Source of the DNA: a virus
Lineage: Duplodnaviria > Caudoviricetes
Reading direction: 5' to 3' (one strand)
DNA: 64,000 bases
Virus record (IMG/VR): IMGVR_UViG_3300027608_000010
Program-made: the position numbers and the translations under genes
Shown: one piece after another, positions 7,692 to 55,518 of the stretch
Layout: every line of letters starts with the position of its first letter
How positions within the stretch are numbered: the stretch's first letter is position 1
Notes under the pieces: model-generated
The model's database searches: none
What the model saw: only the letters and a program-made list of their open reading frames with translations
Told to the model about the DNA's origin: nothing

Positions 7692-7706
7692 AAGGGCAAA
7701 TAGCTA

Positions 7707-7735
7707 TTGTATTTTTGTAGAAACTATGTTATCAT
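7707..7735 (+). promoter_or_regulatory. Sigma70-like promoter
   Basis: TTGTAT-17 nt-TATCAT upstream of 7742. Confidence 0.45.
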
Positions 7736-7741
7736 AGCACA

Positions 7742-8248
7742 ATGCAAATTGATATATACGGTCAGCAAATTTTAGATGAAATGGACTTATGCAGTGCCTT
7801 TCTATCTGACCCCAACATAAAAATCAAAAACGCATTAGTCTCTGATGATATCTATTTTGATAAAGATTTAGAGATAGAAAATATACCCACATTCAAGAAA
7901 TATGTCAAGCAATCTATAACTAAGGAAGAGTTTGACAATCAATTACAACGTAATTGGTTTATTCCAGAAGAATACAATCAATTAGATATAGCCAAACATG
8001 TACTAGACTTATGTCAAACTGACGCAGAATTACAACGAGTTGGGCAAGAGTTAATATTATATCAGCAACGAGATTTGTTTCAATTATTGCGTTATTGTAA
8101 GTATCTAGTTGATACTATGAGAGCAAATAAAGTTGTTTGGGGAGTAGGTCGTGGTAGTAGTGTATCCAGTTATGTTCTGTATTTGATGGGGATACACAGA
8201 ATAAATAGTTTGCATTATGACTTGTCCATTGACGAGTTCTTAAAATAA
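7742..8248 (+). CDS. Stand-alone fragment homologous to the DNA polymerase III alpha (DnaE) region around the GRGS motif, ending before the catalytic aspartates
   Basis: QRVGQEL...YLVDTMRANKVVWGVGRGSSVSSYVLYLMGIHRINSLHYDLSIDEFLK aligns with DnaE 'GPGRGSAAGSLVAY.L.IT..DP..Y.LLFERFLN'. It stops before PDxD. Confidence 0.8.
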   Translation: MQIDIYGQQILDEMDLCSAFLSDPNIKIKNALVSDDIYFDKDLEIENIPTFKKYVKQSITKEEFDNQLQRNWFIPEEYNQLDIAKHVLDLCQTDAELQRVGQELILYQQRDLFQLLRYCKYLVDTMRANKVVWGVGRGSSVSSYVLYLMGIHRINSLHYDLSIDEFLK

Positions 8249-8258
8249 GGAGAAAATT

Positions 8259-8627
8259 ATGCATAGATCAGCATTAGGTAAAACAGTAGATATGTCTTCA
8301 TTGGTTTCAAAAAATGAAAAAGTACGTGCCGTGGGTAACATGAACGTAAATGCTAGAGGTGATATTATCGACAGTCACGGCAGAGTGGTACAGGATAATA
8401 CACAACGAGTTAAAAGACAATATAGTAATACTGTTAATAAACCATCAATTCAAGAAGATGTACAACCAGAAGTTGTAACTCCTGTAGTTACTCCTCCACC
8501 GGTAGTAGAAGTAATAGCACCTGACTTGAATCCAGAAGAACAAAAAATGTTTGAAGAATTTGATGATTACGAAGAAGTTGAAGAAATCAAGCAAACCGAA
8601 ACAGAGAAACCGAAAGCAAAGAAATGA
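8259..8627 (+). CDS. Hypothetical protein
   Basis: RBS GGAG, 122-aa ORF with an acidic, Pro-rich C-terminus. Confidence 0.6.
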   Translation: MHRSALGKTVDMSSLVSKNEKVRAVGNMNVNARGDIIDSHGRVVQDNTQRVKRQYSNTVNKPSIQEDVQPEVVTPVVTPPPVVEVIAPDLNPEEQKMFEEFDDYEEVEEIKQTETEKPKAKK

Positions 8628-8992
8628 AATTAGCGTTTGAACCACATAAGTTTAGTAAAGAGAGTTTTAAACCCGTTGGAAAACATATCATTGTAAGTGA
8701 TATGGAATTTGATGAGCGAATCACGACAGGTGGAATCGTGTTGTTATCTGATAATCGTAAGGATCATGGTATCAGACCACGCTGGGCGCAAGTATATGCA
8801 TTGGGTTCTGACTTCAATGATGATGAGATACAAGTGGGTAAATGGATTTGTATTAGTCATGGAAGATGGACACGGGGCATTGATGTTGAAGATGAAACGG
8901 GAGAAAAGACGTTGCGTAGAGTCGATGAAAATGATATACTACTAGTATCAGACGAACCCGTCTATGATTTAACAATTGGTGAAAAAGGATAA
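8624..8992 (+). CDS. groES: GroES/Cpn10-family co-chaperonin (functional analogue of T4 gp31)
   Basis: FKPVGKHIIV...ERITTGGIVL mobile-loop motif, AQVYALG, VGKWI and ENDILLV match the Cpn10 pattern. Confidence 0.75.
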   Translation: MKLAFEPHKFSKESFKPVGKHIIVSDMEFDERITTGGIVLLSDNRKDHGIRPRWAQVYALGSDFNDDEIQVGKWICISHGRWTRGIDVEDETGEKTLRRVDENDILLVSDEPVYDLTIGEKG

Positions 8993-8994
8993 AA

Positions 8995-9324
8995 ATGAAA
9001 TGGTTAGATAATTGGTTCTTAAAGAAAGTACGTTGGGCTTGGGATCATCAAGAAGCAGACGAAGGACCCAATCTTGTTATGACTGGTAGTAAAAGACAAA
9101 ACATCGGTCGTGCGATTTCAACAAGACATGATTCTTCTGGTGAATTAGAAAGTCGTGGGGTATCATTCAATCTATATTCTGCTAACGGCGGGCATGTAGT
9201 TGAACTGCGTAACTATGATGATAAAGCAGACAGAATAAAAAACTCATTACATATCATACCACATGACAAAGACTTGGGTGAAGCACTTAACCACATTATC
9301 ACTTACGAAGCATTAAAACGATGA
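8995..9324 (+). CDS. Hypothetical protein
   Basis: 109-aa ORF coupled to its neighbours. Confidence 0.6.
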   Translation: MKWLDNWFLKKVRWAWDHQEADEGPNLVMTGSKRQNIGRAISTRHDSSGELESRGVSFNLYSANGGHVVELRNYDDKADRIKNSLHIIPHDKDLGEALNHIITYEALKR

Positions 9325-10244
9325 AAAATCAACTCTGGGTAGAAAAATATAGACCTCATTCTGTAGAAGATTATGTCTTTGTAGATGACAGACAGAAAGA
9401 GCAAGTTAACGGTTGGATAGAAACTGAAAGCATCCCTCATCTATTGTTAAGTGGCGAACCCGGTACAGGTAAGACTACACTTGCAAAAGTTCTTATACAA
9501 GAATTAGGTGTAGAAGAATATGATGTATTGGAAATCAATGCATCACGTGAGAATAGTGTTGACGTAGTGCGAAACAAAATCATTGGCTTTGTGCAAACAA
9601 TGCCATTTGGTAAATTCAAAGTCGTATTATTAGATGAGGCAGATTATCTAACTCCAGCAGGTCAGGCAGCATTGCGTAATGATATGGAAGCATATCACAT
9701 GACTGCACGATTTATTCTAACTTGTAACTATGAACACAGAATTATCCCTGCACTTAAAAGCAGATGTCATGAATTTAGAATAACTAAAACGGATAAGACA
9801 GAATTTACTGCACGTGCCGCAACAGTATTGGTTGCTGAGAACATAGACTTTGATTTAGATATACTAGATAGCTATGTCAGTGCTACATATCCTGACTTGC
9901 GTAAGTGTTTGAATCAGATTCAAGTAAATAGTAGTACGGGTAAATTGTTACCTCCAGTAGATGCTGGCAAAGGTGAAGATGAATTGCTTTTTGAAGCAAC
10001 ACAATTGTTTAAAGCAGGTAAAATTTTAGAAGGTCGTCAGCAATTACTACAACATTTAAGTTTATATCCTAGTAGATTAGAAGATATCTATCGTTGGCTG
10101 TATAATAATTTAGATTTGTGGGGTAATTCAAACGAGAAGCGTGATGCTAGTATCATTATCATTCGTAATGGTCTAGCGAATCTATCAATGGTTGGCATCC
10201 CTGAGATCAGTCTTGCAGCCACAATGGTAGAATTAACAAGTTGA
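9321..10244 (+). CDS. Clamp loader ATPase subunit (RFC small / T4 gp44-like)
   Basis: LWVEKYRP, Walker A GEPGTGKTT, EINAS, Walker B LLDEAD, and the SRC arginine finger (LKSRC). Confidence 0.93.
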   Translation: MKNQLWVEKYRPHSVEDYVFVDDRQKEQVNGWIETESIPHLLLSGEPGTGKTTLAKVLIQELGVEEYDVLEINASRENSVDVVRNKIIGFVQTMPFGKFKVVLLDEADYLTPAGQAALRNDMEAYHMTARFILTCNYEHRIIPALKSRCHEFRITKTDKTEFTARAATVLVAENIDFDLDILDSYVSATYPDLRKCLNQIQVNSSTGKLLPPVDAGKGEDELLFEATQLFKAGKILEGRQQLLQHLSLYPSRLEDIYRWLYNNLDLWGNSNEKRDASIIIIRNGLANLSMVGIPEISLAATMVELTS

Positions 10245-10538: not shown

Positions 10539-11327
10539 TTAAGCGTACAGTCTAAGTACGTGCTCTATAATTTTGTGGCGTTGAACATCTTTCAGTTCAA
10601 AGTTACACAATTGCAACCCTGGAATCACCCCCTTCCCCAATCGATTTTGTAAGTCTAGTAGCCCATTGTCGGCTTTTTTTCTATCAGCTTGTTCTATGTC
10701 GCCAGTAATTACAATCTTACTGCCGATACTGATTCTAGTCATAATCATCTTGAGTTGACTGGGGGTTGCGTTTTGAGCCTCATCTAATACGATATAGCTA
10801 TGTTTAAAGTTTCGACCTCGACAGAATGCTAGGGGTGCAATTTCCACTATCTGTTCTTCTAGCATGTGGGCGATTTCCTTTACCGTATAATACTCTCTCA
10901 ATACATCAAGCAAAGGTCTTGTCCAAGGTTCCATCTTAGCGTTCAGATCACCTGGCAAGAAGCCATGCTTTTCATCATCTACCCCAACGGCGGGTCGTGT
11001 AAGAATGATACGAGAAACTTCACCTGCTTTTAGTGCTTTGATTGCAGCTAACATAGCAAGATAAGTTTTTCCCGTTCCTGCAGGTCCACCGACCACGACA
11101 ATATCAGTCTCTTGGTCTAGTAGTGCGAGGATATATTTTTCTTGGTTTACTGATTTGGGCACCATGACAATGGGCTTACTATTCAGCTTAGGACGACTTT
11201 GGTCAAAGTTGATTGTTTTTGATTCGTGTGTGTAGTATGTTTTCTGTGTGTTATCGTATTTTTTACTGTGTGCGTATCTTGTATCTTGATCCTGAGTGCG
11301 TAAAGCACTTGTTTTGCGTTTGCTCAA
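10539..11327 (-). CDS. phoH: PhoH-family ATPase
   Basis: GPAGTGKTYLA, IILTRPAV, GFLPGDL..K..PW, PLAFCRGRNF, LDEAQN, ITGD..QAD. TTG start with AGGAG RBS at 11334..11338. Confidence 0.95.
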   Translation of the reverse strand: MSKRKTSALRTQDQDTRYAHSKKYDNTQKTYYTHESKTINFDQSRPKLNSKPIVMVPKSVNQEKYILALLDQETDIVVVGGPAGTGKTYLAMLAAIKALKAGEVSRIILTRPAVGVDDEKHGFLPGDLNAKMEPWTRPLLDVLREYYTVKEIAHMLEEQIVEIAPLAFCRGRNFKHSYIVLDEAQNATPSQLKMIMTRISIGSKIVITGDIEQADRKKADNGLLDLQNRLGKGVIPGLQLCNFELKDVQRHKIIEHVLRLYA

Positions 11328-13339: not shown

Positions 13340-14152
13340 ATGGAACACTATCAAACTTTAGGGGTAGACAGAAATGCCTCCTCCGATGACATTAAAAAAG
13401 CATATCGCAAATTAGCAGGAGTTCATCACCCGGACAAGGGTGGTGATACTGCTACATTTCAAAAAATTCAAAGTGCTTATGAAACACTAAGCGATCCACA
13501 AAAGAAACAAGAATACGATAATCCAAATCCGTTTGGTCAAGGCGGTGGCCCTGGTGGCTTTCACTTTACTACAGGTGGAGGAGGGTTTAATATGCAGTTC
13601 AATGATATTTTTGGGCAGATGTTTGGGGGACAACGTAATAATCCTTTTGGTCATTCTTTCCAACAAACATTTAAGACAACCATTTGGGTATCGTTAGAAC
13701 AAGTATTCAATGGGGCTGAACAACTATTACAACTACAAGGTCAGGGCGGCCCTCAAACTATTAAAGTTGAGATTCCAAAAGGAATAGAGAACGGTGCTCA
13801 AATGAGATATGATAATCTCATTGCCGGCGGAGTTCTTATTGTTGAATTCAGAGTTCATGTACATCCTAAGTTTGACCGTGTGGGGCAAGACTTAGTTTCA
13901 CAACATAGAATTAGTGTATTAGATTTGATTGTGGGTACGTCATTTGATTTCACTACTATTAGTGGGAAAACATTTCAAGTCCAAGTCAAACCAGGAACAC
14001 AACCTGATAGTACATTAAGAGTTTCGGGTCAGGGATTACCTCACATGAATGAACAAGGCAACGGTGACCAATTGCTATTGCTTAAACCATTTATTCCTGA
14101 TAAAATAGACAACAAGATAACTGCTAGCATTTTGCAGAGTCGAAGTAATTAA
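13340..14152 (+). CDS. dnaJ: DnaJ/CbpA-type co-chaperone (J domain, G/F region and C-terminal domain; no Zn finger)
   Basis: YQTLGV..NAS.DDIKKAYRKLA..HHPDKGG (HPD motif), GGGGF region, and C-terminal PGTQP...LRVSGQGLP. Confidence 0.93.
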   Translation: MEHYQTLGVDRNASSDDIKKAYRKLAGVHHPDKGGDTATFQKIQSAYETLSDPQKKQEYDNPNPFGQGGGPGGFHFTTGGGGFNMQFNDIFGQMFGGQRNNPFGHSFQQTFKTTIWVSLEQVFNGAEQLLQLQGQGGPQTIKVEIPKGIENGAQMRYDNLIAGGVLIVEFRVHVHPKFDRVGQDLVSQHRISVLDLIVGTSFDFTTISGKTFQVQVKPGTQPDSTLRVSGQGLPHMNEQGNGDQLLLLKPFIPDKIDNKITASILQSRSN

Positions 14153-14176
14153 ATAAGATTTTAAAAGGAAATCATT

Positions 14177-16459
14177 TTGCACTCACCGGAAATCGAATCA
14201 ATTATTGAAAAAGCAGTTGATTTAGCAAAACAACGCAACCATCAATATTGCACAGTAGAACATCTACTATTAGCATTAATTTCTTATGCACCATTTCAGA
14301 AATGTATAGGCAGCTTTGGTATTGATGCAGATACTATGAGTAAAGAAGTAATTACATATTTAGATAATTTAAAATATATCGAATTATCAGTATCTGAAGG
14401 ACAAGAAATTCAGCCACGCAAAACTAATAGCTTAGAACGTGTAATGAATCGTAGCGTTACTCAAGTATTATTTACCGGTCGTAAAGTTGTAACAACTATT
14501 GACTTGTATCTTAGTATTATGGCTGAAGGCAATAGTCATGCACAGTATTTCTTATTGAAACATGGTTTTGTTAAGAATGAATTTGTTCCTTTTTGGCAAA
14601 AACATTACAAAGGCACACAAGCTGATGTTAAACTAACAGACGAACAAGCAGATAATATCCTAGAAGAATACACTATCAATTTAACACAACTGGCTAAGTT
14701 GCAGAAACTAGAGCCTGTGATTGGTCGTAGTAAAGAAGTTGATGACATTATCAATGTATTAGCTAAACGATTCAAGTCAAATGTATTGATGGTAGGTGAT
14801 CCTGGTGTTGGTAAAACTGCAATTGCAGAAGGTCTAGCACAAATGATTGTCAATGATGAAGTCCCTGAATTCTTAAAAGACCATGAACTTTACAGTTTAG
14901 AGATCGGTAGTCTATTAGCAGGTAGTAAGTATCGCGGTGACTTTGAAGAAAAAGTTAAAGCAGTACTTGATGCACTGACTGTTAAGAAAGATGCAATTCT
15001 GTTCATTGACGAAGCACATACAATGCGTGGCGCCGGTGGTGCAACAAATGGTGCAGTTGATTTTGCTAACATGATTAAACCTGCAATTACTAAGGGTACA
15101 TTAAAAGTTATTGCAAGTACAACTTGGGAAGAGTACTACGAATCATTTGAAAAGGACCGCGCATTGATGCGAAGGTTCTATCGTGTGAGTATTGATGAAC
15201 CAAGTCGTGAATCTACAGTTAGTATTCTTAAAGGTCTAAGTGTACGATTGAATGACTTCCACAGTGTGGAGATTACAGATGAAGCGATTGAAGCCGCAGT
15301 TGAAGGTGCAACACGATACATTCAGGATCGTAAGAATCCAGACAAGTCTATTGATTTGTTAGATGCCGCTTGTGCTAAACAACGAGTAGCAGAGAACAAG
15401 GGCGCTATCATTACTAAAGAATTAGTGTTTGATCAGATTGAAAAATACACCGGAGTTCCTGCTGATAAATTAACTGATGATAACTCAGAACGTATTATTA
15501 ACCTTGAGTCTAATGTAAAATCAAAACTATATGGACAAGAAGAAACAGTTAATAAGGTACTTGAACGTGTATATGTTAGTTTTGCTGGTATCGGCAATCA
15601 AACTAAACCACAAGCGAGTTTCTTATTCTTAGGCCCAACCGGTACAGGTAAAACTGAATTAGCTAAATTATTGTCTAAGAACCTTGACATGAAACTACTC
15701 AAGTACGATATGTCAGAGTATGGTGAAAAGTTTTCGGTATCAAGTTTGATTGGCGCGCCCCCGGGCTATGTTGGCTTTGGTGAGGGATCACTAGGTGGTG
15801 GACGACTGATTAATGACTTAAGCAAGAACCCACATTCAATTCTATTATTTGACGAAGTTGAAAAGGCTCACCCAGATATCTTTAATATCTTCTTGCAATT
15901 GCTTGATGAAGGTCGTGTTACCGGTAGCAATGGTAAAGAAGTCAATGCTAAAAACTGTATTATCATTATGACTAGTAACTTAGGTAGTGGTGACAGTGAA
16001 CGAAATGTAATTGGTTTTGGTAGTCAAGAACGTAGCGGGGAAGATGACAAAGCATTAAAAGAATTCTTTAAGCCAGAATTCAGAAATCGAATTGACTTGG
16101 TATGTAAGTTTGGTAAACTAGATATGTTGGCAATCAAAAAAATTGTTATTAAATTTGCTGATGACTTGAAGAAATCTCTCAGAGAGGCACATAATATTAC
16201 ACTACACTTGAGCGAACCAGTAGTTGAGTATCTAGCAGAAAAGGGTTATGATAATAAAATGGGAGCCCGCCCACTAGCAAGAAAGATTGATGAACTAATT
16301 CGGGTACCTCTGAGCAAGAAACTCTTGTTTGAGCGTATCAAAAATAGTACAATCAATGCTAACTTAGAGAACGGAGAAATTGTTTTTGATGTTCAACAAA
16401 AATTAATAGCAGAAGTAGGTGAAGATGGCATTATTAAAGTTACAACAGACACGCAGTGA
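14177..16459 (+). CDS. clpA: ATP-dependent Clp protease ATP-binding subunit ClpA-like
   Basis: Clp N domain (TVEHLLLAL), NBD1 GDPGVGKT / LFIDEAH, NBD2 GPTGTGKTE / LFDEVEKAHP, ClpP-docking IGF loop (NVIGFG), and MGARPL. Confidence 0.93.
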   Translation: MHSPEIESIIEKAVDLAKQRNHQYCTVEHLLLALISYAPFQKCIGSFGIDADTMSKEVITYLDNLKYIELSVSEGQEIQPRKTNSLERVMNRSVTQVLFTGRKVVTTIDLYLSIMAEGNSHAQYFLLKHGFVKNEFVPFWQKHYKGTQADVKLTDEQADNILEEYTINLTQLAKLQKLEPVIGRSKEVDDIINVLAKRFKSNVLMVGDPGVGKTAIAEGLAQMIVNDEVPEFLKDHELYSLEIGSLLAGSKYRGDFEEKVKAVLDALTVKKDAILFIDEAHTMRGAGGATNGAVDFANMIKPAITKGTLKVIASTTWEEYYESFEKDRALMRRFYRVSIDEPSRESTVSILKGLSVRLNDFHSVEITDEAIEAAVEGATRYIQDRKNPDKSIDLLDAACAKQRVAENKGAIITKELVFDQIEKYTGVPADKLTDDNSERIINLESNVKSKLYGQEETVNKVLERVYVSFAGIGNQTKPQASFLFLGPTGTGKTELAKLLSKNLDMKLLKYDMSEYGEKFSVSSLIGAPPGYVGFGEGSLGGGRLINDLSKNPHSILLFDEVEKAHPDIFNIFLQLLDEGRVTGSNGKEVNAKNCIIIMTSNLGSGDSERNVIGFGSQERSGEDDKALKEFFKPEFRNRIDLVCKFGKLDMLAIKKIVIKFADDLKKSLREAHNITLHLSEPVVEYLAEKGYDNKMGARPLARKIDELIRVPLSKKLLFERIKNSTINANLENGEIVFDVQQKLIAEVGEDGIIKVTTDTQ

Positions 16460-42679: not shown

Positions 42680-42943
42680 ATGAACGATGTTAAAACATTC
42701 AACGGCGATCAAAAAATCAAACTAACACAACTCATTAATGAGGGTATGCTAGTTATGAATGAAATTGATACATTAAACGGTGGACTCACCGATACAGTAA
42801 AAGCAATAGCAGAAGAACTAGAAGTTAAACCTAGTGTACTTAAAAAGGCAATACGAATTGCCCATAAAGCAAGTTTAACACAATCAAATCAAGAACACGA
42901 ACAACTCAACACTATTTTGGAAACTGTGGGCAAAACACTTTGA
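42680..42943 (+). CDS. T4 DsbA-like dsDNA-binding protein
   Basis: 87-aa helical protein, KAIAEELEVKPSVLKKAIRIAHK, similar to the C-terminus of T4 DsbA. Confidence 0.5.
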   Translation: MNDVKTFNGDQKIKLTQLINEGMLVMNEIDTLNGGLTDTVKAIAEELEVKPSVLKKAIRIAHKASLTQSNQEHEQLNTILETVGKTL

Positions 42944-45657
42944 GTTATGTAGATGCCATCCATTCACGGGATGAAGATAGAATTTATGTAGTAGAACGAG
43001 GTACTGACGGTAAGCGTCATTACAAAGAGTTCCCTGCCAATTATGTTTTCTACTATCCAGATAACAAGGGTAAGCATCGTAGCATTTATGGCAAACCAGT
43101 AAGTAGATTCAGTACTCGCAAGCGTACAGAGTTTGAGAAGGAACGCAGGATACACGGTGGTAAGGAACTCTTTGAGAGTGACATTAACGTAGTGTTTCGT
43201 TGTCTAAGTGAAAACTATTTGGGTATAGATCCTCCCAAACTACACACTTGTTTCTTTGACATTGAAGTAGACTTTGATCCAGAAAAAGGTTTCAGTCCTA
43301 CTACTGACCCATTCAATCCCGTAACAGCTATTTCATTGTATTTGGATTGGCAAGACACATTGATAACATTGTGTATTGCACCAAAGCACATGAGTAATGA
43401 AACAGCATGGGAAATTACACGTAAGTTTGAGAATACATTGCTTTTCAAAAATGAAACGGAAATGTTTGAGACATTCTTTCAATTGATTGAAGATGCAGAT
43501 GTGTTGACTGGCTGGAACTCAGAAGGATACGACATACCATATATGGTTAATCGTGTCACACGTGTAATGAGTAAAGACGATACACGTAAATTCTGTTTAA
43601 TGGGTCAACTACCCAAGCCAAGAGAGTATGAACGATTTGGTAAGTCAGAACAGACTTATGATTTAATCGGTCGTATTCACATGGACTATTTGCAACTCTA
43701 CAAGAAATACAACTACGAAAGTCGCCATAGCTATAAACTAGATGCTATTGGTGAAATGGAAGTTGGTGAAAACAAAACACAATACGAAGGTACTCTTGAC
43801 CAATTGTATAACAAGGACTGGCAAAAGTTCTTAGAGTATAACAGACAAGATACTATGTTGTTGGTTAAGATTCACAACAAACTTAAATTCTTAGATTTGG
43901 CTAATGCATTGGCACATGAAAACACAGTACTGTTACCAACAGTTATGGGTTCAGTGGCAATGATTGAAATGGCTATCTATAATGAGGCGCATGAGCGTGG
44001 ATTAGTTGTACCAGATAAAAAACGGAGAAATATAAATGCAGATGAAACACAGCAAGCCGCAGGTGCCTTTGTTGCTACGCCGAAAAGAGGTATGCACGAA
44101 TACGTCGGGGCAGTCGATATTAACTCACTCTATCCTTCGGTCATCCGAGCAGTTAACATGGCGGGCGAGACTATTGTTGCCCAAGTCAGACAAACTTTAA
44201 CCGATCAGTACATGAAAGACAAGGGTCTTAGATTAGCACAAGAAAAGAAACGTTATAAAGAAGGTGACGATGATGTGGGTGGTGCTATTCTATGGGAAGG
44301 TTTGTTTGGTGCGTTAGAGTATACTGCTATTATGAACCAAGAGCGTGGCACTATGCTTACTGTTGACTATGAAGATGGTCGCTGTGAAGAAATGTCTGCG
44401 GCAGAGATATGGAAGATGGTCTTTGACAGTCACAAGCCTTGGATGCTTAGTGCAAATGGTACAATCTTTACATACGAGAAAGAGGGCGTAGTTCCAGGAC
44501 TATTGTCTCGCTGGTACTCGGATCGTAAAGCAATGCAGAAGAAACTAAAAGAATCAACTACTGATGAAGACCGTGATTATTGGGACAAGCGTCAGTTAGT
44601 ACGTAAGATTTTATTGAACTCTGCATATGGCGCATTGTTGAATGAGCATTGTCGTTTCTATGATAAACGCATTGGGCAAAGTGTTACATTGTGTGGTCGT
44701 CAGATTGTTAAACACATGATGAGTACTATCAATGAAACAATCGCAGGTGAATATGCACACGACGGTGAAGCTATCGTATATGGTGATACTGACTCATGTT
44801 ATTTTACTGCATATCCTATTCTCAATTCGCAAATAGCAAATGGTGAACTAGTTTGGAATAAGGAAACTTGTATTGGATTGTATGATAGTATTGCTGACCA
44901 AGCAAACGAATCATTCCCTGCATTTATGGAGAAAGCATTTCACTCACCACGCAAGAATGGGGAAATCATTAAAGCAGGTCGTGAATTGATTGGTGATCGT
45001 GCTATCTTTATTACAAAGAAACGCTATGCTATCAATATCTTTGATAAAGAGGGCAAGCGTAAAGATAAAGATGGTAAACTAGGTGATATCAAAGCTATGG
45101 GTCTTGACTTGAAACGTGCTGATACTCCTAAATACGTACAAGAATTCTTAATGAGTGTTCTCAGTATGGTCATTCAACAAGGTAAAGGTCGTGATGAAGT
45201 CATTGAAACTATCAAAGACTTCAAGCGAACATTATCCGAGCAAGATAGTTGGACAAAAGGTTCACCTAAATCAGTGAACAAGTTAACAATGTATGGTGAG
45301 AAAGAAGCAAACAGTAGTAAAGGTCGTGAGAACATGCCCGGTCATGTACGTGCGGCATTGAATTACAACTATCTACGTAGAGTCAATGGTGACCAATACA
45401 GTCAAAAAATTGTTGATGGTATGAAGGTAGTAGTTTGCAAAATGAAATCTAATCCATTGAACTTTACAAGCATTGCTTACCCAACAGACGAACTGCGACT
45501 ACCTAAATGGTTTACAGAATTGCCATTTGATGATAAGGCAATGGAACAAACACTTGTTGATGAAAAGATTGACAACTTACTCGGAGTATTAAGTTGGGAT
45601 ATCAAAACCAACATTGATACTGATTCAACATTTAGTGATTTATTTACTTTCGGTTAA
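42940..45657 (+). CDS. Family B DNA polymerase with a 3'-5' exonuclease domain (T4 gp43-like)
   Basis: ExoI FFDIEVD, ExoII GWNSEGYD, ExoIII YNRQD; DINSLYPS, KILLNSAYG, YGDTDS, KKRY. Confidence 0.97.
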   Translation: MSYVDAIHSRDEDRIYVVERGTDGKRHYKEFPANYVFYYPDNKGKHRSIYGKPVSRFSTRKRTEFEKERRIHGGKELFESDINVVFRCLSENYLGIDPPKLHTCFFDIEVDFDPEKGFSPTTDPFNPVTAISLYLDWQDTLITLCIAPKHMSNETAWEITRKFENTLLFKNETEMFETFFQLIEDADVLTGWNSEGYDIPYMVNRVTRVMSKDDTRKFCLMGQLPKPREYERFGKSEQTYDLIGRIHMDYLQLYKKYNYESRHSYKLDAIGEMEVGENKTQYEGTLDQLYNKDWQKFLEYNRQDTMLLVKIHNKLKFLDLANALAHENTVLLPTVMGSVAMIEMAIYNEAHERGLVVPDKKRRNINADETQQAAGAFVATPKRGMHEYVGAVDINSLYPSVIRAVNMAGETIVAQVRQTLTDQYMKDKGLRLAQEKKRYKEGDDDVGGAILWEGLFGALEYTAIMNQERGTMLTVDYEDGRCEEMSAAEIWKMVFDSHKPWMLSANGTIFTYEKEGVVPGLLSRWYSDRKAMQKKLKESTTDEDRDYWDKRQLVRKILLNSAYGALLNEHCRFYDKRIGQSVTLCGRQIVKHMMSTINETIAGEYAHDGEAIVYGDTDSCYFTAYPILNSQIANGELVWNKETCIGLYDSIADQANESFPAFMEKAFHSPRKNGEIIKAGRELIGDRAIFITKKRYAINIFDKEGKRKDKDGKLGDIKAMGLDLKRADTPKYVQEFLMSVLSMVIQQGKGRDEVIETIKDFKRTLSEQDSWTKGSPKSVNKLTMYGEKEANSSKGRENMPGHVRAALNYNYLRRVNGDQYSQKIVDGMKVVVCKMKSNPLNFTSIAYPTDELRLPKWFTELPFDDKAMEQTLVDEKIDNLLGVLSWDIKTNIDTDSTFSDLFTFG

Positions 45658-48561: not shown

Positions 48562-49011
48562 ATGGAACAAAGAGAACAAGCATTAATAGAACAACGTGAA
48601 CGTATTCGTACAATAGCAAACAGATTTATCTGGGTTACTTTTCAACGTGAAGGTATTCATTGCTATCCACAAGCAGGTCATGATCCTGCATTAGCAACAG
48701 GTGACGAATATGATGTTAGCTTTTTAAGTACACCACATCGTCATATATTTCATTTCCGAGTTGGCATTCAAGTAACGCACAACGATCGGGACATAGAGTT
48801 CATTCAATTCAAACGTTGGCTTGAAAGTTTATTTCAAGGCATACTTGAGTTGAATAACAAAAGCTGTGAAATGATTAGTGATGACCTCTATGAAGTCATT
48901 GCAACTCGCTACCCAGACCGTGACATTCAAATCGAAGTCTCAGAAGATGGAGAGAACGGATGTTCAATTAACTATAACACAAAACGACCACATTTGACAG
49001 TCGTAATTTAA
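48562..49011 (+). CDS. QueD/PTPS-like T-fold protein (second paralogue)
   Basis: GIHCYP, PHRHIFHFRV, DIEFIQFKRWL, KSCEMI, EVSEDGENG. Confidence 0.65.
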   Translation: MEQREQALIEQRERIRTIANRFIWVTFQREGIHCYPQAGHDPALATGDEYDVSFLSTPHRHIFHFRVGIQVTHNDRDIEFIQFKRWLESLFQGILELNNKSCEMISDDLYEVIATRYPDRDIQIEVSEDGENGCSINYNTKRPHLTVVI

Positions 49012-49022
49012 GAGGTAATATA

Positions 49023-49235
49023 ATGGCAAAACCAACTTTTCAACCTAATCCTAAAGTTCATCAAATCTTTGAAGACTTGGAAAAGTATTTAGAATTCTGT
49101 GTTGACTTTGGCTATAAGTATGATGAGGCAAGTTTGTACGATATGCGTAGCTATGTGTACCGTCAACATCAAAAACAACTGACAAACAAGTGGCCTAAAG
49201 ACAGTTGGGCAGAAGACCGTAGGCATAATGCGTAG
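49023..49235 (+). CDS. Hypothetical protein
   Basis: GAGG RBS, 70 aa. Confidence 0.6.
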   Translation: MAKPTFQPNPKVHQIFEDLEKYLEFCVDFGYKYDEASLYDMRSYVYRQHQKQLTNKWPKDSWAEDRRHNA

Positions 49236-50403
49236 ACTATATTATATGGGCCTTGAGCCCTATAAAGCACGATATACTCTGCAATTACAAGAGTGGAATC
49301 GTGCTGTCTTTGATAAACGGGGCATTGATTATGTTATTGTCCCGGGCGAAACACTAAGTAACGACCAAGCGATTGTTACTGGTCAAGTATTAGATGCACA
49401 TGGTCGCACATACTTTGGTATGTCGCAACTAATGAATTTGATTCGTATGATGAAAGCCGGTGAACTAAACAATGAAGATGTTATCTACTTTGAAGATATG
49501 TTTCAGCCTGGCATTGAATCTTTACCCTATATTCTTAAACAAATCGACACAGTTAACAGGCCTCGGATTTATGTTCGCTGTCTTGCTCAGTCCATTGATC
49601 CTGATGATTTTGTTCATGTATGGGGTATGGCTAAGTTTATGGGTCACTATGAAAAGATGGTTGACTCATTCGTAGATGGTATGCTTGCAACGAATGAAGA
49701 AATGGTAATGAACATGAAGATTGCAGGCTGGGAAGCCCCAATTTATAATATATCAGGTCTTGCATTTGGTAAAGAAGAAGTACGCGGGCGTGTTGGCGAA
49801 CTAAAGCCATTTAATGAGCGTACACCTCGTATTGTATTTACCGCACGTTGGGATCAAGAAAAGCAACCTGATTTCTTCATGGATGTTATTGAAGAATTCA
49901 ATAATAGATACGGTAATAGAAGTGCAGAGTTTGCGGTATTAAGTGGTGCACCACTACGTAGTAACAATAGTAGTTACATGGAACGCACACATCAAATGCG
50001 TAGAGATGGTAAACTCAAAGTATATGAAGATTTAGAAAAAAATGACTACTATAGTCTCCTTAATGACTCAAGAGTTTTGTTCAACTGCGCCCTCCAAGAT
50101 TGGGTCAGCAATACGGTCAGTGAAGCAGATACTCTTGGTTGCAATGTACTTTATCCTGCTTATCGCAGTTTCCCCGAAACCTTTGCAAATGATTATACAA
50201 GGCTGTATACTCCATGGAGTGTAGAAGATGCCGCAATCAAGTTATTCAATATGCTACATACACCGCATAAAAAGCAAGGTATGATTAGTGATTGGAATGA
50301 TGGTACTATTGACCGTATCTGTGATATCATGGAGGGCAATGGTGAGCAATGGTTGCGTATGAGTACTGACTATCGCAAGCACACAAGAGAAAGTAAATAT
50401 TAA
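49228..50403 (+). CDS. GT-B-fold glycosyltransferase
   Basis: IVFTARWDQEKQPDFF, YYSLLNDSRVLFNCALQDWVSNTVSEA..LGC.VLYP..RSFPE. Confidence 0.8.
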   Translation: MRRLYYMGLEPYKARYTLQLQEWNRAVFDKRGIDYVIVPGETLSNDQAIVTGQVLDAHGRTYFGMSQLMNLIRMMKAGELNNEDVIYFEDMFQPGIESLPYILKQIDTVNRPRIYVRCLAQSIDPDDFVHVWGMAKFMGHYEKMVDSFVDGMLATNEEMVMNMKIAGWEAPIYNISGLAFGKEEVRGRVGELKPFNERTPRIVFTARWDQEKQPDFFMDVIEEFNNRYGNRSAEFAVLSGAPLRSNNSSYMERTHQMRRDGKLKVYEDLEKNDYYSLLNDSRVLFNCALQDWVSNTVSEADTLGCNVLYPAYRSFPETFANDYTRLYTPWSVEDAAIKLFNMLHTPHKKQGMISDWNDGTIDRICDIMEGNGEQWLRMSTDYRKHTRESKY

Positions 50404-50404
50404 G

Positions 50405-50521
50405 ATGATTATTGAAATATTAATTGCATTAGGGTATACAACAATATCATTTGTTATTGTTATGTTGATATATGCCGCAATCAGTAAATTATCAAAATCA
50501 AAAAGCCAACACAAGGAGTAA
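50405..50521 (+). CDS. Small single-pass membrane protein (38 aa, MIIEILIALGYTTISF...)
   Basis: Fills the gap; hydrophobic N-terminus and basic tail. Confidence 0.45.
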   Translation: MIIEILIALGYTTISFVIVMLIYAAISKLSKSKSQHKE

Positions 50522-50523
50522 AC

Positions 50524-51132
50524 ATGGCAACTTGGAAATTATCAACATACTATAAGAAAAGTGCAATTGAACGACAAATTTGGGTTAAGGATGATAAGGT
50601 AATCATCCGTGAAGAAGGTTATCGTTGGGGAACATTCTATGTTCAATCCGATGAGCGTCCTCTTACTGATGCAGAATTGATTAATGAACATGGATATGAA
50701 CTTGGTTGTCTTGACAATGATGAGTGTTGGGAACTAGATAGTTTAGATGATGGATGTTGGGCTGATTCAACAGCAGGTAGAAATTGTACCGAAGAAGATT
50801 TAGAAGCATTTGAAGAAGCCTGGGAAGAAAATTACAATGAGGGTGTAGAAGAATTGGGTTGGAGTAATGATGATACTGAGTTTGAATTTCAAGGTCCATT
50901 AGTATTGACTAATGAAGATACCGGTGAAGAATTCAATGGTGATGAAATCACAAAACCAGAAGTAACAGAATCAGTTACACTCAAAACACTTAATCCAACA
51001 GCGGCATGGCCTTTTGGTGACGAACCAATTGATTATGTTGAAGTTGACCCAACAACATGGCCCTCTCCAAATAGTAATTTTGTAGAAACTGCTAAATGGC
51101 CCTTCGAAACAAAAACTAAAGAGGAAAAATAA
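50524..51132 (+). CDS. Acidic hypothetical protein with C-terminal WP repeats
   Basis: AGGAG RBS; AAWPF, TTWPS and AKWPF. Confidence 0.6.
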   Translation: MATWKLSTYYKKSAIERQIWVKDDKVIIREEGYRWGTFYVQSDERPLTDAELINEHGYELGCLDNDECWELDSLDDGCWADSTAGRNCTEEDLEAFEEAWEENYNEGVEELGWSNDDTEFEFQGPLVLTNEDTGEEFNGDEITKPEVTESVTLKTLNPTAAWPFGDEPIDYVEVDPTTWPSPNSNFVETAKWPFETKTKEEK

Positions 51133-51311
51133 TGGCTAAGAAAAAAGTAAAAATAGAACTATACGCAGAAGCACCATATATGCAGGGCTATGCATCAGGA
51201 TTGGCAAATGAAGAATTTTTTAATCCATATGCTGATTTAGAAAATGCAGAAGCAGACGCTGAGGACTACGAGCGTGGGTATGAAAACGCCACTGAAACTG
51301 TAGCAGAATAA
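51132..51311 (+). CDS. Small acidic hypothetical protein (59 aa, MAKKKVKIELYAE...)
   Basis: GAGG RBS; ATG overlaps the upstream stop. Confidence 0.6.
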   Translation: MAKKKVKIELYAEAPYMQGYASGLANEEFFNPYADLENAEADAEDYERGYENATETVAE

Positions 51312-51331
51312 TTTAACATAAAGGAAATAAA

Positions 51332-51520
51332 ATGAATGCACATAACGATATTAAAACACACTTTGATGACTACTTGATGGAGAACGAAAAGTTTGACAAA
51401 GGTAATGCATCAGCAGGCACACGTGCCCGCAAAGCATTAGCAGAAATGGCTAAAGCAGTTAAAGCACGCCGCAGCGAAATTACTGCCGAGAAAACTGCAA
51501 GAAAAGAAGCTAAGGCTTAA
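51332..51520 (+). CDS. Histone H1-like Hc1-family small basic protein
   Basis: KGNASAGTRARKAL matches the Hc1-like GNKAAGTRARK motif. Confidence 0.7.
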   Translation: MNAHNDIKTHFDDYLMENEKFDKGNASAGTRARKALAEMAKAVKARRSEITAEKTARKEAKA

Positions 51521-51526
51521 TGCTGT

Positions 51527-51534
51527 GATAAATA
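51527..51534 (+). promoter_or_regulatory. Late promoter-like GATAAATA upstream of folE
   Basis: Lies in the intergenic gap before the folE leader. Confidence 0.5.
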
Positions 51535-51595
51535 CTTGTGAGACACAAAGGTCGCACAACGTCAAAACAAAACACTCACAACGGAGGGTTATCAA

Positions 51596-52273
51596 ATGAG
51601 TTATAATAAGACAAAAACTGATCCTGAATTAGGATTACAAGTACACGAACATCTAGTTAAAATGGGTGTTGAAACGCCAACCACTTATACAGGTCATATG
51701 TCCCGTGTAGGCAAGATTGAATTGATTGAAAGTCATTTCAAAGGTATCATGGAAACATTAGGTTTAGACCTAAGTGATGATAGCTTAATGGACACACCCA
51801 AGCGTGTTGCCAAGATGTATGTCAATGAAATCTTTTGGGGACTTGATTATGAAGCATTCCCTAAATGTACTACTGTTGACAATAAAATGAAATACAATGA
51901 AATGGTATGTGAACGTAACGTTAACGTGCAAAGCAATTGTGAACATCACTTTGTTGTTATTGATGGGCTTGCTACTGTTGCATATGTTCCCAAAGACAGA
52001 GTACTTGGCTTAAGTAAAATCAATCGTATTGTAGAATATTTTTCTAAGCGACCACAAATACAAGAACGATTAACTGAACAAATCTTTCACACACTACAAT
52101 ACATTTTGAACACAGAAGATGTTGCAGTTATGATTGACGCAAAACACTATTGTGTTGCGGCCAGGGGAGTTGAGGATACTGGTAGTAGTACAGTAACCAC
52201 ACGCTTAGGTGGTGGGTTTAAATCTGACCCGGCGGCACGTGCAGAGTTCTATCAAATTGCGAGACAGAAATGA
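51596..52273 (+). CDS. folE: GTP cyclohydrolase I
   Basis: DTPKRVAKMY, SNCEHHF, GLSKINRIV, RPQIQERLT, HYCVAARG. Confidence 0.96.
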   Translation: MSYNKTKTDPELGLQVHEHLVKMGVETPTTYTGHMSRVGKIELIESHFKGIMETLGLDLSDDSLMDTPKRVAKMYVNEIFWGLDYEAFPKCTTVDNKMKYNEMVCERNVNVQSNCEHHFVVIDGLATVAYVPKDRVLGLSKINRIVEYFSKRPQIQERLTEQIFHTLQYILNTEDVAVMIDAKHYCVAARGVEDTGSSTVTTRLGGGFKSDPAARAEFYQIARQK

Positions 52274-52467
52274 ATGAAAAGATTAAAGCATTAGAACAAC
52301 GATGCTGGAGCCATCGTGTTAACGGAGTATTAGTAGATGGTCATTTACATTTTGATGCGGCAAAGTTTGCTGAGTTAATTGTGCTTAAGTGTGCCGAGAT
52401 TGCTGACACTGCGGAACCATTCCTTTCTTCAGATTTGATTAAACAACATTTTGGAGTTAAAGAATGA
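52270..52467 (+). CDS. Hypothetical protein (KFAELIV..C motif)
   Basis: 65 aa, coupled to its neighbours. Confidence 0.55.
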   Translation: MNEKIKALEQRCWSHRVNGVLVDGHLHFDAAKFAELIVLKCAEIADTAEPFLSSDLIKQHFGVKE

Positions 52468-52775
52468 ACTTTATAACATGGATTTTTAGACGAGTTAAAA
52501 ACAGCCAATCAGATTGGGTACGGGGCTATCGCCGTTTAATACTAGAGGAAACTTTCCTGAGCATAATGTTTACACTTATTTGTGGAATCTTATTGTATAT
52601 TGTACCTGTGGGATTTCTGTTGATACCTTACATTGACCGTACAGACACAGCCGTAACGATCATATGGGGTCTTGTAGCATCAGTTGTCATATTCTATGTG
52701 TATCATTGGCTCATGGCCCTGCACGAAGTTTATGAACGAGAAAAACTAAAAACTTGGGAGGCACTAAAGCGATGA
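52464..52775 (+). CDS. Membrane protein (two TM segments)
   Basis: Two hydrophobic stretches. Confidence 0.55.
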   Translation: MNFITWIFRRVKNSQSDWVRGYRRLILEETFLSIMFTLICGILLYIVPVGFLLIPYIDRTDTAVTIIWGLVASVVIFYVYHWLMALHEVYEREKLKTWEALKR

Positions 52776-52972
52776 CAATAGAAGATTTAGAATTTATTTT
52801 TCAAAATCAAATTGAAGAAGGCACAGAGAAGCTATACTTCATGCTGACTGACGGGGATCGTCATCCCCTAATACAACGACATCCTGCTGATGATTTAGCG
52901 GGTTTATTACCTATGCTAGATAGTTTTCATTACGCTGGCTCAGGTGCTGGCATGCCAAGATTTACAAAATGA
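52772..52972 (+). CDS. Hypothetical protein
   Basis: ATG 52772 overlaps the upstream stop (ATGA). Confidence 0.5.
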   Translation: MTIEDLEFIFQNQIEEGTEKLYFMLTDGDRHPLIQRHPADDLAGLLPMLDSFHYAGSGAGMPRFTK

Positions 52973-53235
52973 ATCGTTCACCTTTCAGAAACCAAGAAGA
53001 AGCACTTGCCTTTCTTAAAAAGATAGGCACTAAAAAACGCAGGGTTATTGAAGGTGTTGAACGTGAACACATGTTATTGATTTTTGCATTGATTGGTCCA
53101 ACTGAATCAAGTAACAATCAACGAACATTTACTAATGTCTATCGTCACATTGGTAAAGAATATGAAGTTACATATGGATTCAGTGATTTGGGTGAACCCG
53201 ATCCAATAGTAGAAGAATTGACGGAGTTAGAATGA
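52969..53235 (+). CDS. Hypothetical protein
   Basis: 88 aa, ATGA coupling. Confidence 0.55.
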   Translation: MNRSPFRNQEEALAFLKKIGTKKRRVIEGVEREHMLLIFALIGPTESSNNQRTFTNVYRHIGKEYEVTYGFSDLGEPDPIVEELTELE

Positions 53236-53696
53236 TATTCAATAAGATTAAAGAACTAAAAGAACGTGGATTGATTATTGGTATTACCTTTAGTCAATTT
53301 GACTTATTACACGCCGGTCATATTGCAATGCTAAGTGAAGCAAAGAATCATTGTGATTATTTGATTGCTGGCTTGCAAAACAATGCACAGTGGGATAGAC
53401 CAGAAAAGAATGAACCAATTCAAAGTATTGTAGAACGACAAATCAGTTTAAGTGCGGTACGCACAGTAGATGAAATTGTTATCTATAATACAGAGAAGGA
53501 TTTAGCAGACATTCTACTAACACTACCTATTGATGTGCGTATTCTGGGTATTGAATATGCAGACAAAGATTTCAGTGGTAAGGAAATCTGTGAAAGAAGA
53601 AATATTAAGATTATCTATAACGGGCGTGACCATAGTTTTAGTAGCAGTAGTTTGCGAAAAAGAATTTTGGAAGCAGAGCAGAAAAAAAGTAAATAA
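53232..53696 (+). CDS. Glycerol-3-phosphate cytidylyltransferase (TagD)-like HxGH nucleotidyltransferase
   Basis: GITFSQFDLLHAGH, CDYLIAGL, ERQI.L.AVR.VDEIV, R.H.FSSSSLR. Confidence 0.85.
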   Translation: MIFNKIKELKERGLIIGITFSQFDLLHAGHIAMLSEAKNHCDYLIAGLQNNAQWDRPEKNEPIQSIVERQISLSAVRTVDEIVIYNTEKDLADILLTLPIDVRILGIEYADKDFSGKEICERRNIKIIYNGRDHSFSSSSLRKRILEAEQKKSK

Positions 53697-53740
53697 AGAT
53701 AACCGGCCTTATGGGCTCATCCCGGTATACAAATTCTGCG

Positions 53741-53764
53741 TCCTATGCTATAATTAACATAGGA
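53741..53764 (+). promoter_or_regulatory. SD-sequestering hairpin with an extended -10 promoter in its loop, upstream of queD
   Basis: tcctatg-ctataattaa-catagga overlaps AGGAG; TGcTATAAT at 53746..53754. Confidence 0.55.
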
Positions 53765-53771
53765 GAAAATC

Positions 53772-54311
53772 ATGGCAAACTTAAACGAAAACGAATCTCA
53801 AACACATCGTTGGAATTCAGCAAGACAATATAAATTCACAAGTACTAAAGAATATCACGATGCATTTCCGTGTGCATATCGTCAATGGCGGGCAGATAGT
53901 CATTGCAATATGATTCATGGATATAGTTTCAGTATGCGATTCTATTTCGGTACTGATAGTTTAGATGTTCGTAACTGGGCGGCTGACTATGGTGGACTAA
54001 AAGAATTGAAAAAGATTCTTGAGGATCAATTTGACCACACATTGTTAGTAGCACAAGATGACCCGGAACTTGATACATTCAAAATGCTACAAGAAAAGAA
54101 ATTGGCTAAGTTAACCATTCTACCAAGAATTGGTTGTGAGAGTTTAGCCGATATGCTTTACAAATATGTCAATGGAGTGTATATTCCAGATATGTGGGGT
54201 AACGGTGAAGCAGAACGTTTATGGTGCTATCGGGTTGAAGTACGTGAGACACAAGCTAACATGGCATTCCGTGAAGGTCATCGTGAATGGAATGAAGATT
54301 TATTCGCATAA
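53772..54311 (+). CDS. queD: 6-carboxy-5,6,7,8-tetrahydropterin synthase
   Basis: STKEY...FPCAYRQWRADSHCNMIHGYSF, DYGGLKELK..LEDQFDH, VEVRET. Confidence 0.88.
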   Translation: MANLNENESQTHRWNSARQYKFTSTKEYHDAFPCAYRQWRADSHCNMIHGYSFSMRFYFGTDSLDVRNWAADYGGLKELKKILEDQFDHTLLVAQDDPELDTFKMLQEKKLAKLTILPRIGCESLADMLYKYVNGVYIPDMWGNGEAERLWCYRVEVRETQANMAFREGHREWNEDLFA

Positions 54312-54319
54312 GGTTAAAA

Positions 54320-54538
54320 ATGTGGGCACGTGAACAAAGTTATGTTTATCTCAAGCAGTACATTCAGTGCCGCAACAATACTCCCTGGCCTATGGCAGTG
54401 CCGCAAGCGCATGACCGTGCTAGATGGACACTACAACATCTAGGCGGTCTAGCTAGCAGTTGGGACATACGCCGTAGTGATTGTACATATTATTATCCAC
54501 AGGTAAAAAATGAAAAGAATGTGGAGACTTTGGGCTAA
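54320..54538 (+). CDS. Possible hypothetical protein
   Basis: 72 aa after AAGG; no recognisable motif. Confidence 0.35.
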   Translation: MWAREQSYVYLKQYIQCRNNTPWPMAVPQAHDRARWTLQHLGGLASSWDIRRSDCTYYYPQVKNEKNVETLG

Positions 54539-54668
54539 AAGTTTAGGAGAGAAAGCAGGTAATACGGATAGTGAAGCTAACCGTATTGCTTGTATACGTA
54601 CCTGCATTGTGTTAATATATGTTATCACAAATTTTTTTATTATTGCAGGCATAATAAGACATTGGTAA
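54510..54668 (+). CDS. Small membrane protein (52 aa, MKRMWRLWAKSLGEKAG...IIRHW), missed by the ORF track
   Basis: WRLWAK.LGEKA...IR..I...Y..TN.FI.AG..RHW, a small phage protein pattern; AGGT RBS. Confidence 0.7.
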   Translation: MKRMWRLWAKSLGEKAGNTDSEANRIACIRTCIVLIYVITNFFIIAGIIRHW

Positions 54669-54675
54669 ATATAAA

Positions 54676-55518
54676 ATGAGCAAACTTAAAATATCAGAAC
54701 TGTTTTACAGTATACAAGGTGAAGGTCGTTACATGGGTGTCCCGAGCGTGTTCTTACGCACGTTTGGGTGTAATTTTAAATGTGATGGCTTTGGAATGAC
54801 TAAAGGAGAAAAAAGTGTTGAACGTTTTAAGGTGGACGGAGAAAAGTTTAAATCTTATAAATCACTACCACTTGTATCTACTGGATGCGATAGCTATGCG
54901 AGTTGGGATCCGCGCTTCAAACATCTCAGTCCTGTTCTCGACACCAATACTATTGTTGATACTATTACCAATTTACTTCCTCATGGTCGTTGGAAAGATG
55001 AGCATTTGGTTATCACGGGTGGTGAACCACTACTAGGCTGGCAACGTGCTTATATAGACTTGTTGTCACATGACAATATGCGTGGCTTACAAGAAATAAC
55101 ATTTGAAACTAATGGTACACAATTGTTGGAACCAGAACTAGTTACTTTCTTAAATGAATGGAAGAAACATCGTTTCTTACATTGTCTAACATTTAGTGTT
55201 AGTCCTAAACTAAGCATCAGTGGTGAGAATTGGGAAGATGCAATCTGTGCTGATATTGTTAAACAATATTATAATACTGGTTTTACGTATTTAAAGTTTG
55301 TTGTGGCTTCTAAAGAAGATGCAGAAGAAGCAGAGCAAGCAGTAAACGAATATCGTAAACGAGGCTTTAAAGGTCCTGTATATCTTATGCCATGTGGTGG
55401 TGTTGAAAGTGTTTATAGCATGAACAACAGAACTGTTGCTGAACTTGCAATACAAAAAGGCTGGCGTTATAGTGATAGACTACAAGTGCCACTCTTTAAA
55501 AACGAATGGGGAACTTAA
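54676..55518 (+). CDS. queE: 7-carboxy-7-deazaguanine synthase (radical SAM)
   Basis: ISELFYSIQGEG, VFLRTFGCNFKC...GCDS, VITGGEPLL, TFETNGT, SVSPKL, WRYSDRLQ. Confidence 0.92.
   Translation: MSKLKISELFYSIQGEGRYMGVPSVFLRTFGCNFKCDGFGMTKGEKSVERFKVDGEKFKSYKSLPLVSTGCDSYASWDPRFKHLSPVLDTNTIVDTITNLLPHGRWKDEHLVITGGEPLLGWQRAYIDLLSHDNMRGLQEITFETNGTQLLEPELVTFLNEWKKHRFLHCLTFSVSPKLSISGENWEDAICADIVKQYYNTGFTYLKFVVASKEDAEEAEQAVNEYRKRGFKGPVYLMPCGGVESVYSMNNRTVAELAIQKGWRYSDRLQVPLFKNEWGT

Follow-up and report, generated by a model that had tools for sequence, protein, structure and literature searches.

A DnaE-like protein of 168 residues from a lake phage as the probable N-terminal subunit of a two-piece minimal family C DNA polymerase

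Cyanobacterial DnaE (Ssp, Npu) is encoded by two distant genes, the products of which are spliced into a full-length enzyme by a split intein. In jumbo phages of group 2.2, Iyer, Anantharaman, Krishnan, Burroughs and Aravind described, on computational grounds, a split minimal Pol III alpha (Iyer et al. 2021, Viruses 13:63, PMC7824862). Our literature search found no published biochemical or experimental study of this split mini-polymerase. In bacterial DnaE, D401, D403 and D555 make up the active site and H760 is the presumed steric gate (PMC8485763); the E. coli GRGS motif provides R362 and the GS nucleotide pocket, and R390, R709 and R710 are reported to contact the dNTP (PMC4374717). The gene analysed here belongs to the split Pol III alpha that has already been described, with PHROG_11127 as one half and PHROG_11778 as the other.

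We analysed 64,000 nucleotides of a tailed phage genome (IMG/VR record IMGVR_UViG_3300027608_000010), referred to as the window. The product of the open reading frame at 7742-8248 is very probably the N-terminal subunit of a minimal family C (DnaE-derived) DNA polymerase that consists of two pieces and has no intein. We call this product the N-half and the separately encoded catalytic part the C-half. The features of the window on which the analysis draws are the following:

7697..7702, + strand: AAATA-type motif just 5' of the -35 box, possibly an UP element or a second, late-type promoter
7707..7735, + strand: probable sigma70-type promoter, TTGTAT, 17 nt, extended -10 TG-n-TATCAT (sequence and ortholog pattern)
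7742-8248, + strand: N-half ORF, 168 aa, probable N-terminal (nucleotide-binding) subunit of the split minimal DNA Pol III alpha
7742..7948, + strand: variable phage-specific extension, aa 1-69 (the structural match begins at aa 69-70)
7949..8245, + strand: aa 70-168, equivalent to DnaE 277-393 (PHP-palm linker and first part of the palm)
8147..8158, + strand: GRGS motif (aa 136-139), equivalent to E. coli G361-S364
8231..8248, + strand: DEFLK-stop, the fixed split point, equivalent to ERFLN 389-393
8246..8252, + strand: Shine-Dalgarno (SD) sequence TAAGGAG overlapping the N-half stop and coupling the next gene (pattern common to most orthologs)
8259..8627, + strand: conserved downstream gene, PHROG_14844, not DnaE (PHROG match, synteny)
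8624..8992, + strand: GroES/gp31-like co-chaperonin (PHROG_931 and PHROG_3188)
9321..10244, + strand: RFC/gp44-type clamp loader ATPase (PHROG_168, E 2.4e-71), in the same gene run as the N-half
42940..45657, + strand: complete family B DNA polymerase (PolB), 905 aa, with exonuclease domain (PF00136, E 1.3e-41; PF03104; PHROG_262)

The 168-aa reading frame reported in a first-pass annotation of the sequence was confirmed. Residues 97-167 match Pfam family PF07733 (DNA_pol3_alpha; E 9.4e-09) at model positions 24-94 of 260 only, and the full-length protein matches PHROG_11127 (E 5.7e-40). Because the PHROG spans the whole length and the Pfam model is only partly covered, the fragment represents a recognized phage family. 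An AF2 model of the N-half (pLDDT 89) superposes aa 70-168 on E. coli DnaE 277-393 (Z 10.0, rmsd 2.5 A, 96 residues) at approximately 22% sequence identity. The best seven matches of a structure search with this model were all family C polymerases, the next one scoring Z 3.1. Foldseek returned nothing at E <= 0.001 for either half, whereas VIA-align did match the N-half model to family C. The annotation had traced the likeness to DnaE from 'RL..EL' through GRGS to ERFLN; the motifs and the end stand, and the start has to be moved upstream, to aa 70. For aa 1-69 we obtained no significant DnaE match, only a non-significant one to DnaE 238-271; aa 1-32 belong to the interface predicted between the two halves.

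In E. coli DnaE, GRGS begins at 361, ERFLN at 389 and PDFD at 400, which places D401 8 positions past N393. The N-half has GRGS at 136 and DEFLK at 164-168 and so retains the DnaE spacing. It therefore ends 8 positions short of D401, just before the catalytic aspartates, as the annotation had stated. The near-invariant N-half residues are R99, E103, G134, G136, R137, G138, S139, E165 and F166. Glu occupies the R390 position, and the split point carries no intein segment; Pfam searches gave no intein match.

The search for further DnaE segments that had been proposed as a check led to the catalytic half, gene P0252. It lies 38.7 kb upstream of the N-half gene on the same strand, approximately 31.0-31.6 kb before window base 1. 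Its sequence was read from a near-identical contig, ENA ERZ27247453 k141_148793 (99.995% to the window over 18,248 nt), where the two genes are placed as follows:

46297-45791 of k141_148793 (ERZ27247453): N-half
85634-85041 of k141_148793 (ERZ27247453): C-half

P0252 encodes 197 aa with the catalytic Asp motifs that the N-half does not contain, starts at the position of DnaE 396-400, i.e. where the N-half leaves off, and lies two genes away from the primase and DnaB genes. A DxDxD motif scan of G001, a collinear relative with 76-91% nucleotide identity, found a C-half, likewise of 197 aa, that starts five residues before DIDID. PF07733, PF17657 and phmmer searches with pieces of E. coli DnaE missed the C-half or barely scored it; an ortholog 89% identical to P0252 matches PHROG_11778 with E 9.8e-55. 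PF17657 was absent from 5 relatives (2 of them complete); a PF07733 search gave a single match per genome.

The C-half retains equivalents of the DnaE active site: D6, D8 and D71 correspond to D401, D403 and D555, H37 to H511, K69 to K553 and H171 to H760. D10, the RP motif (R139-P140), K142 and K168 are retained as well, as is, in most cases, Y175; P0252 has the equivalent of DnaE Y764. Every aligned diverse C-half has D6, D8 and D71, and 91 of 92 have H171. The near-invariant K142 and K168 have no counterpart in DnaE. Residue conservation was assessed on 57 N-half and 97 C-half diverse representatives, plus cultured phages. A structure search with the C-half model (pLDDT 67) gave family C matches at only Z 5.7-8.0. 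In this phage and some relatives, a DEDD exonuclease gene (PF16473; L210:7444-8004) overlaps the C-half start. We considered this exonuclease as a fixed third subunit and rejected it: it is three genes further upstream in G001 and is not annotated beside the C-half of Paride or GAP32.

The N-half family comprises 7,031 clusters of near-constant length. It occurs in 90 cultured phage records, nearly all of them jumbo phages (PA5oct/Paride, GAP32, RaK2, Atu_ph07, SCTP-2), and the C-half occurs in 96, with genus counts that match those of the N-half. Reciprocal profile searches found the partner in 5/5 genomes in each direction, and four IMG/VR relatives carry both halves. The distance between the two genes ranges from approximately 4 kb (RsoM2USA) to approximately 180 kb (Atu_ph07). 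The C-terminal boundary and dN/dS, both suggested as checks by the first-pass annotation, pointed to a maintained gene. An xEF(L/I)K end was found in 120/120 top homologues, the N-half stop lies exactly 33 aa from the GRGS Gly in 31 of 52 diverse representatives, and nearly all C-halves begin 1-11 residues ahead of their first catalytic Asp. Among close relatives, dN/dS fell between 0.07 and 0.10 (0.076-0.102 for the N-half, 0.070-0.084 for the C-half). On these comparisons both halves are evidently under purifying selection. In Ralstonia phage RsoM2USA (L226, L239), the C-half begins one residue before the first catalytic Asp. Alishewanella phage Slicko01 (OQ508956.1; L227, L234), at 141 kb below jumbo size, carries both halves approximately 11 kb apart, its C-half located between an RFC gene and primase/helicase genes.

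Structure prediction of the two chains together gave a high-scoring heterodimer. The ipSAE was 0.91, compared with 0.00 for the best control, and the mark used is reached by 58/80 solved complexes and 2/110 mismatched pairs; the score measures likeness rather than binding, since halves of a split gene can pass by resembling solved DnaE. The runs agreed in at least 97% of contacts, with a partner pLDDT of at least 91. Residues 1-72 of the C-half, mostly at pLDDT <50 in the single-chain model, reached a mean of 90 in the complex. In the best predicted contacts, residues 133-134 of the N-half meet the catalytic strand at 9-11 of the C-half, and residues 68-73 of the N-half meet residues 43-46 of the C-half. 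According to this model, the two chains would bind non-covalently as a heterodimer, in which the N-half strand at aa 133-134 would pack on the catalytic strand of the C-half and complete the palm sheet. The dimer would then act as a DNA-templated, dNTP-selective polymerase.

The main doubt about activity comes from the missing arginines that are reported to contact the dNTP. Of 55 aligned diverse N-halves, 53 have Glu at the R390 position and two have Asp. R396 disappears at the split point, and the stretch around R709/R710 has been deleted. The D401-H511 spacing is 110 aa in DnaE and 31 aa here; the approximately 80 aa that are deleted are what we take to be the thumb. The R639-H760 spacing is likewise reduced, from 121 aa to 32 aa, a deletion of approximately 90 aa that includes R709/R710. 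The C-half chain stops approximately 25 aa past the H760 equivalent, all C-terminal domains being gone. A PolC, however, has Thr at the R390 position. Since PolC also does without R390, the missing arginines weigh more against calling the protein a DnaE than against its being active. K142 or K168 may stand in for the arginines that are gone, and the part played by E389 in DnaE may fall to the invariant Glu.

The two halves also occur as natural single chains. P0265 (376 aa) is an N-C fusion found with identical sequence in two assemblies, possibly of one sample (L241:1827-2957 and L242:1292-2422), and P0266 (375 aa; L244:1066-2193), 81% identical to P0265, is a fusion from another sample. Both have the order of DnaE, N then C, with a linker three residues longer than that of DnaE. 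These fusions independently support the assembly of N- and C-halves, and would ease a biochemical test of the mini-polymerase. They are located on short contigs (L241 has 26% GC), followed by an overlapping reverse-strand gene as after C-halves.

P0391 (336 aa; L245:1516-4181), from a single contig, is an unsplit mini Pol III core with Arg in the junction. Its gene overlaps the stop codon of a PF03090 Replicase (ColE2-type Rep) gene of 552 aa on an 8-kb contig of 59% GC. This contig may be a plasmid or mobile element that carries a primer-extending polymerase of its own. No relatives of P0391 were found in GTDB, IMG/VR or PLSDB, and a search for further fused forms in IMG/VR, GTDB, plasmids and JGI metagenomes gave only one weak partial match and ordinary DnaE. 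The ESM Atlas holds PF07733 clusters of 360-460 aa near P0391, which are a lead. In a quick N-half tree (103 columns, with a long-branch warning and without a clade test), P0265 and P0266 lie deep among the split forms, and P0391 is placed outside them, together with DnaE, on a long branch. This nesting suggests a single chain first, then the split, then occasional re-fusion. The tree, a weak one, thus gives some preference to a single-chain ancestor of the split forms over a primordial two-piece state. P0259 (L255:2501-3652), an N-half seemingly fused to the next gene, was rejected: the two are joined only if TAG is read as Gln, so that the fusion is probably a product of gene calling or may come from a recoded marine phage. 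P0258 looks like P0259, and P0260-P0264 look like chimeric or extended calls.

We weighed four other explanations against a two-piece polymerase. The first-pass annotation had favoured a non-catalytic mimic that would act on the host Pol III holoenzyme as decoy or inhibitor, and the N-half could have this function alone or as a second job. A fragment with the fold of DnaE 277-393, transcribed from a host-type sigma70 promoter that suggests early expression, would suit such an inhibitor. The complementary C-terminal gene on the near-identical contig speaks against it, as do the dedicated phage partner always present alongside the N-half, the natural N-C fusions and the conservation of the family across phages of unrelated hosts. 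The fragment, moreover, has only about a fifth of its residues in common with DnaE, and the surface it fills would already be occupied in a one-chain host DnaE. The clamp-, tau- and epsilon-binding domains of DnaE lie outside the retained fragment. We found no clamp-box motif in the N-half, and the tau- and epsilon-binding regions are absent, although one would expect a holoenzyme decoy to retain all of these. With the partner always present and no host-binding region kept, little is left of this reading, and we consider it very unlikely. The alternative that the annotation had also offered, a subunit whose partner half is encoded by another gene, is the one borne out: the C-half co-occurs, is predicted to dock and is naturally fused to the N-half in some lineages.

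A heterodimer with another task is less easily dismissed, although we still regard it as improbable. The two chains could form some other nucleotidyltransferase of the Pol-beta fold, active in terminal addition or in RNA or protein nucleotidylation, or a primer-binding scaffold. The loss of R390, R396, R709, R710 and the thumb and the presence of a full PolB in the same phage would fit such a function. It accords poorly with the retained steric-gate His and finger-helix Tyr, with the conserved replication-cluster context and with PolC, which likewise lacks R390. A decayed remnant of a captured dnaE could explain why a short fragment of a large enzyme is found. The annotation had named a pseudogene as an alternative, which is excluded by the fixed ends and a dN/dS of approximately 0.09; near-constant length in all those clusters and conserved promoter and synteny leave the remnant reading hardly any credit. 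We give just as little to a covalent joining of the halves by a split intein or RNA trans-splicing, for which Ssp DnaE would be the precedent. The N-half ends at K168 with nothing appended, neither boundary has extra residues, and C-halves start so close to the catalytic Asp that there is no room for intein pieces.

The N-half gene has a conserved transcriptional setting. The promoter boxes upstream of the N-half are TTGTAT at 7707-7712 and a TG-extended TATCAT at 7730-7735, the end of which is 6 nt 5' of the ATG. A simple promoter scan does not list this candidate, whose -35 box matches at 3/6 positions, and reports no excess of promoter sites in the region (22 vs 19.5 +/- 4.8). A -10 box 4-8 nt 5' of the ATG together with TTG at -35 was nevertheless present in 35 of 47 distinct ortholog upstream regions, compared with 1.3% of all + strand ATGs in the window, so that the sigma70-like promoter assigned to this gene in the first-pass annotation is probably real. 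None of the 47 regions has an SD upstream of the N-half ortholog. The N-half mRNA is probably leaderless, with a predicted start at or beside the ATG. The AAAT[AG] motif occurs 33-55 nt 5' of the ATG in 30 of the 47 regions, a raw count.

The same leaderless TTG/-10/ATG pattern precedes two more genes of the window, a DnaJ-like gene at 13340 and a 5'-3' exonuclease gene at 61779, amounting to 3 of 42 gene starts tested. Lake metatranscriptome contigs, mostly from a relative approximately 91% identical, cover parts of the N-half gene; such contigs cannot reveal start, strand or level, and DNA carry-over is possible. In all four lake RNA libraries (4/4), the deepest contigs fell on a PhoH-like gene on the reverse strand (10539-11327), a depth that cannot rank genes as other organisms may contribute.

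Downstream of the N-half, the ribosome-binding site that had been annotated is present as TAAGGAG. The gene behind it is indeed not DnaE, and it is a conserved operon neighbour rather than an unrelated gene. Linkage of the N-half to the clamp loader is retained in Paride, GAP32, RaK2, Atu_ph07 and SCTP-2, and the C-half adjoins primase and DnaB in Paride, GAP32, Atu_ph07 and Slicko01. The phage does encode a complete family B polymerase, as the annotation had said, presumed to be the main replicase. An RFC clamp loader, a UvsW-like helicase, DnaB and primase make up a group 2 jumbo-phage background; close relatives are found on contigs of 359-367 kb, and a group 2 jumbo genome has approximately 350 kb. 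DnaJ-like and ClpA/ClpB-like chaperone genes adjoin one another at 13340-16459, near the GroES-like gene at 8624, their labels being Pfam labels from the near-identical locus L110. By eye, positions 48562-55518 hold genes resembling a 7-deazaguanine pathway (QueD-like, FolE, QueE, glycosyltransferase), which suggests DNA modification.

The predicted dimer would have no thumb, PHP, clamp-binding, tau-binding or proofreading parts and would work beside PolB. Since these parts are absent, it would be distributive and uncorrected on its own. Judging from gene neighbourhood, our best guess, a tentative one, is a role in short-patch extension of primase-made primers followed by hand-off to clamp-loaded PolB. 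This is suggested by the C-half beside primase/DnaB, the N-half beside the clamp loader, and P0391 overlapping a Rep gene. Gap filling, repair or lesion bypass, judged on the same neighbourhood, is a somewhat weaker candidate. A fully Pol-alpha-like extender, in which an active family C dimer of approximately 365 residues adds a DNA patch to the RNA primer and the RFC-type loader hands over, is conceivable, and we hold it doubtful. If it is true, a minimal family C core works without R390, R396, R709, R710 or a thumb. An active mini-polymerase, approximately one third of the size of DnaE, would show what the bacterial replicase core can do without. Although they encode a complete PolB, these phages maintain a thumbless Pol III core in two pieces, on which strong purifying selection acts.

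Compared with bacterial DnaE (E. coli 5fku, M. tuberculosis 5lew and 7pu7, Taq 2hpi), the mini-polymerase shares the palm fold, GRGS and the three catalytic Asp, as well as H511, K553, the RP motif and H760 across both halves. It differs in size, with 365 aa in two chains against approximately 1160 aa in one, and lacks PHP, thumb, most of the fingers, HhH, OB and the clamp- or tau-binding parts. Glu replaces R390, and R396, R709 and R710 are missing. PolC (G. kaustophilus 3f2b) has the same fold (Z 8.1 for the N-half, 8.0 for the C-half) and also has no Arg at R390; unlike the mini-polymerase, it combines exonuclease, OB and PHP domains of its own in one large chain. In contrast to the cyanobacterial split DnaE, there is no intein here, the cut lies inside the palm, and the enzyme is miniaturized.

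The closest likeness is to the system of Iyer et al. In both, the N-terminal NTP-binding part and the C-terminal Mg/template-binding part are encoded by two genes that lie far apart, with a family B polymerase alongside, and we see no essential difference. Clear orthologs with the same neighbourhoods are found in RaK2, GAP32, PA5oct/Paride, Atu_ph07 and SCTP-2; the copy analysed here is from an uncultured freshwater (giant lake) phage. Beyond what the available sections of their paper contain (PMC7824862), our analysis adds the re-fused forms, the presence of both halves in a phage of 141 kb and a conserved, probably leaderless promoter, along with an unsplit relative coupled to a plasmid-type Rep protein.
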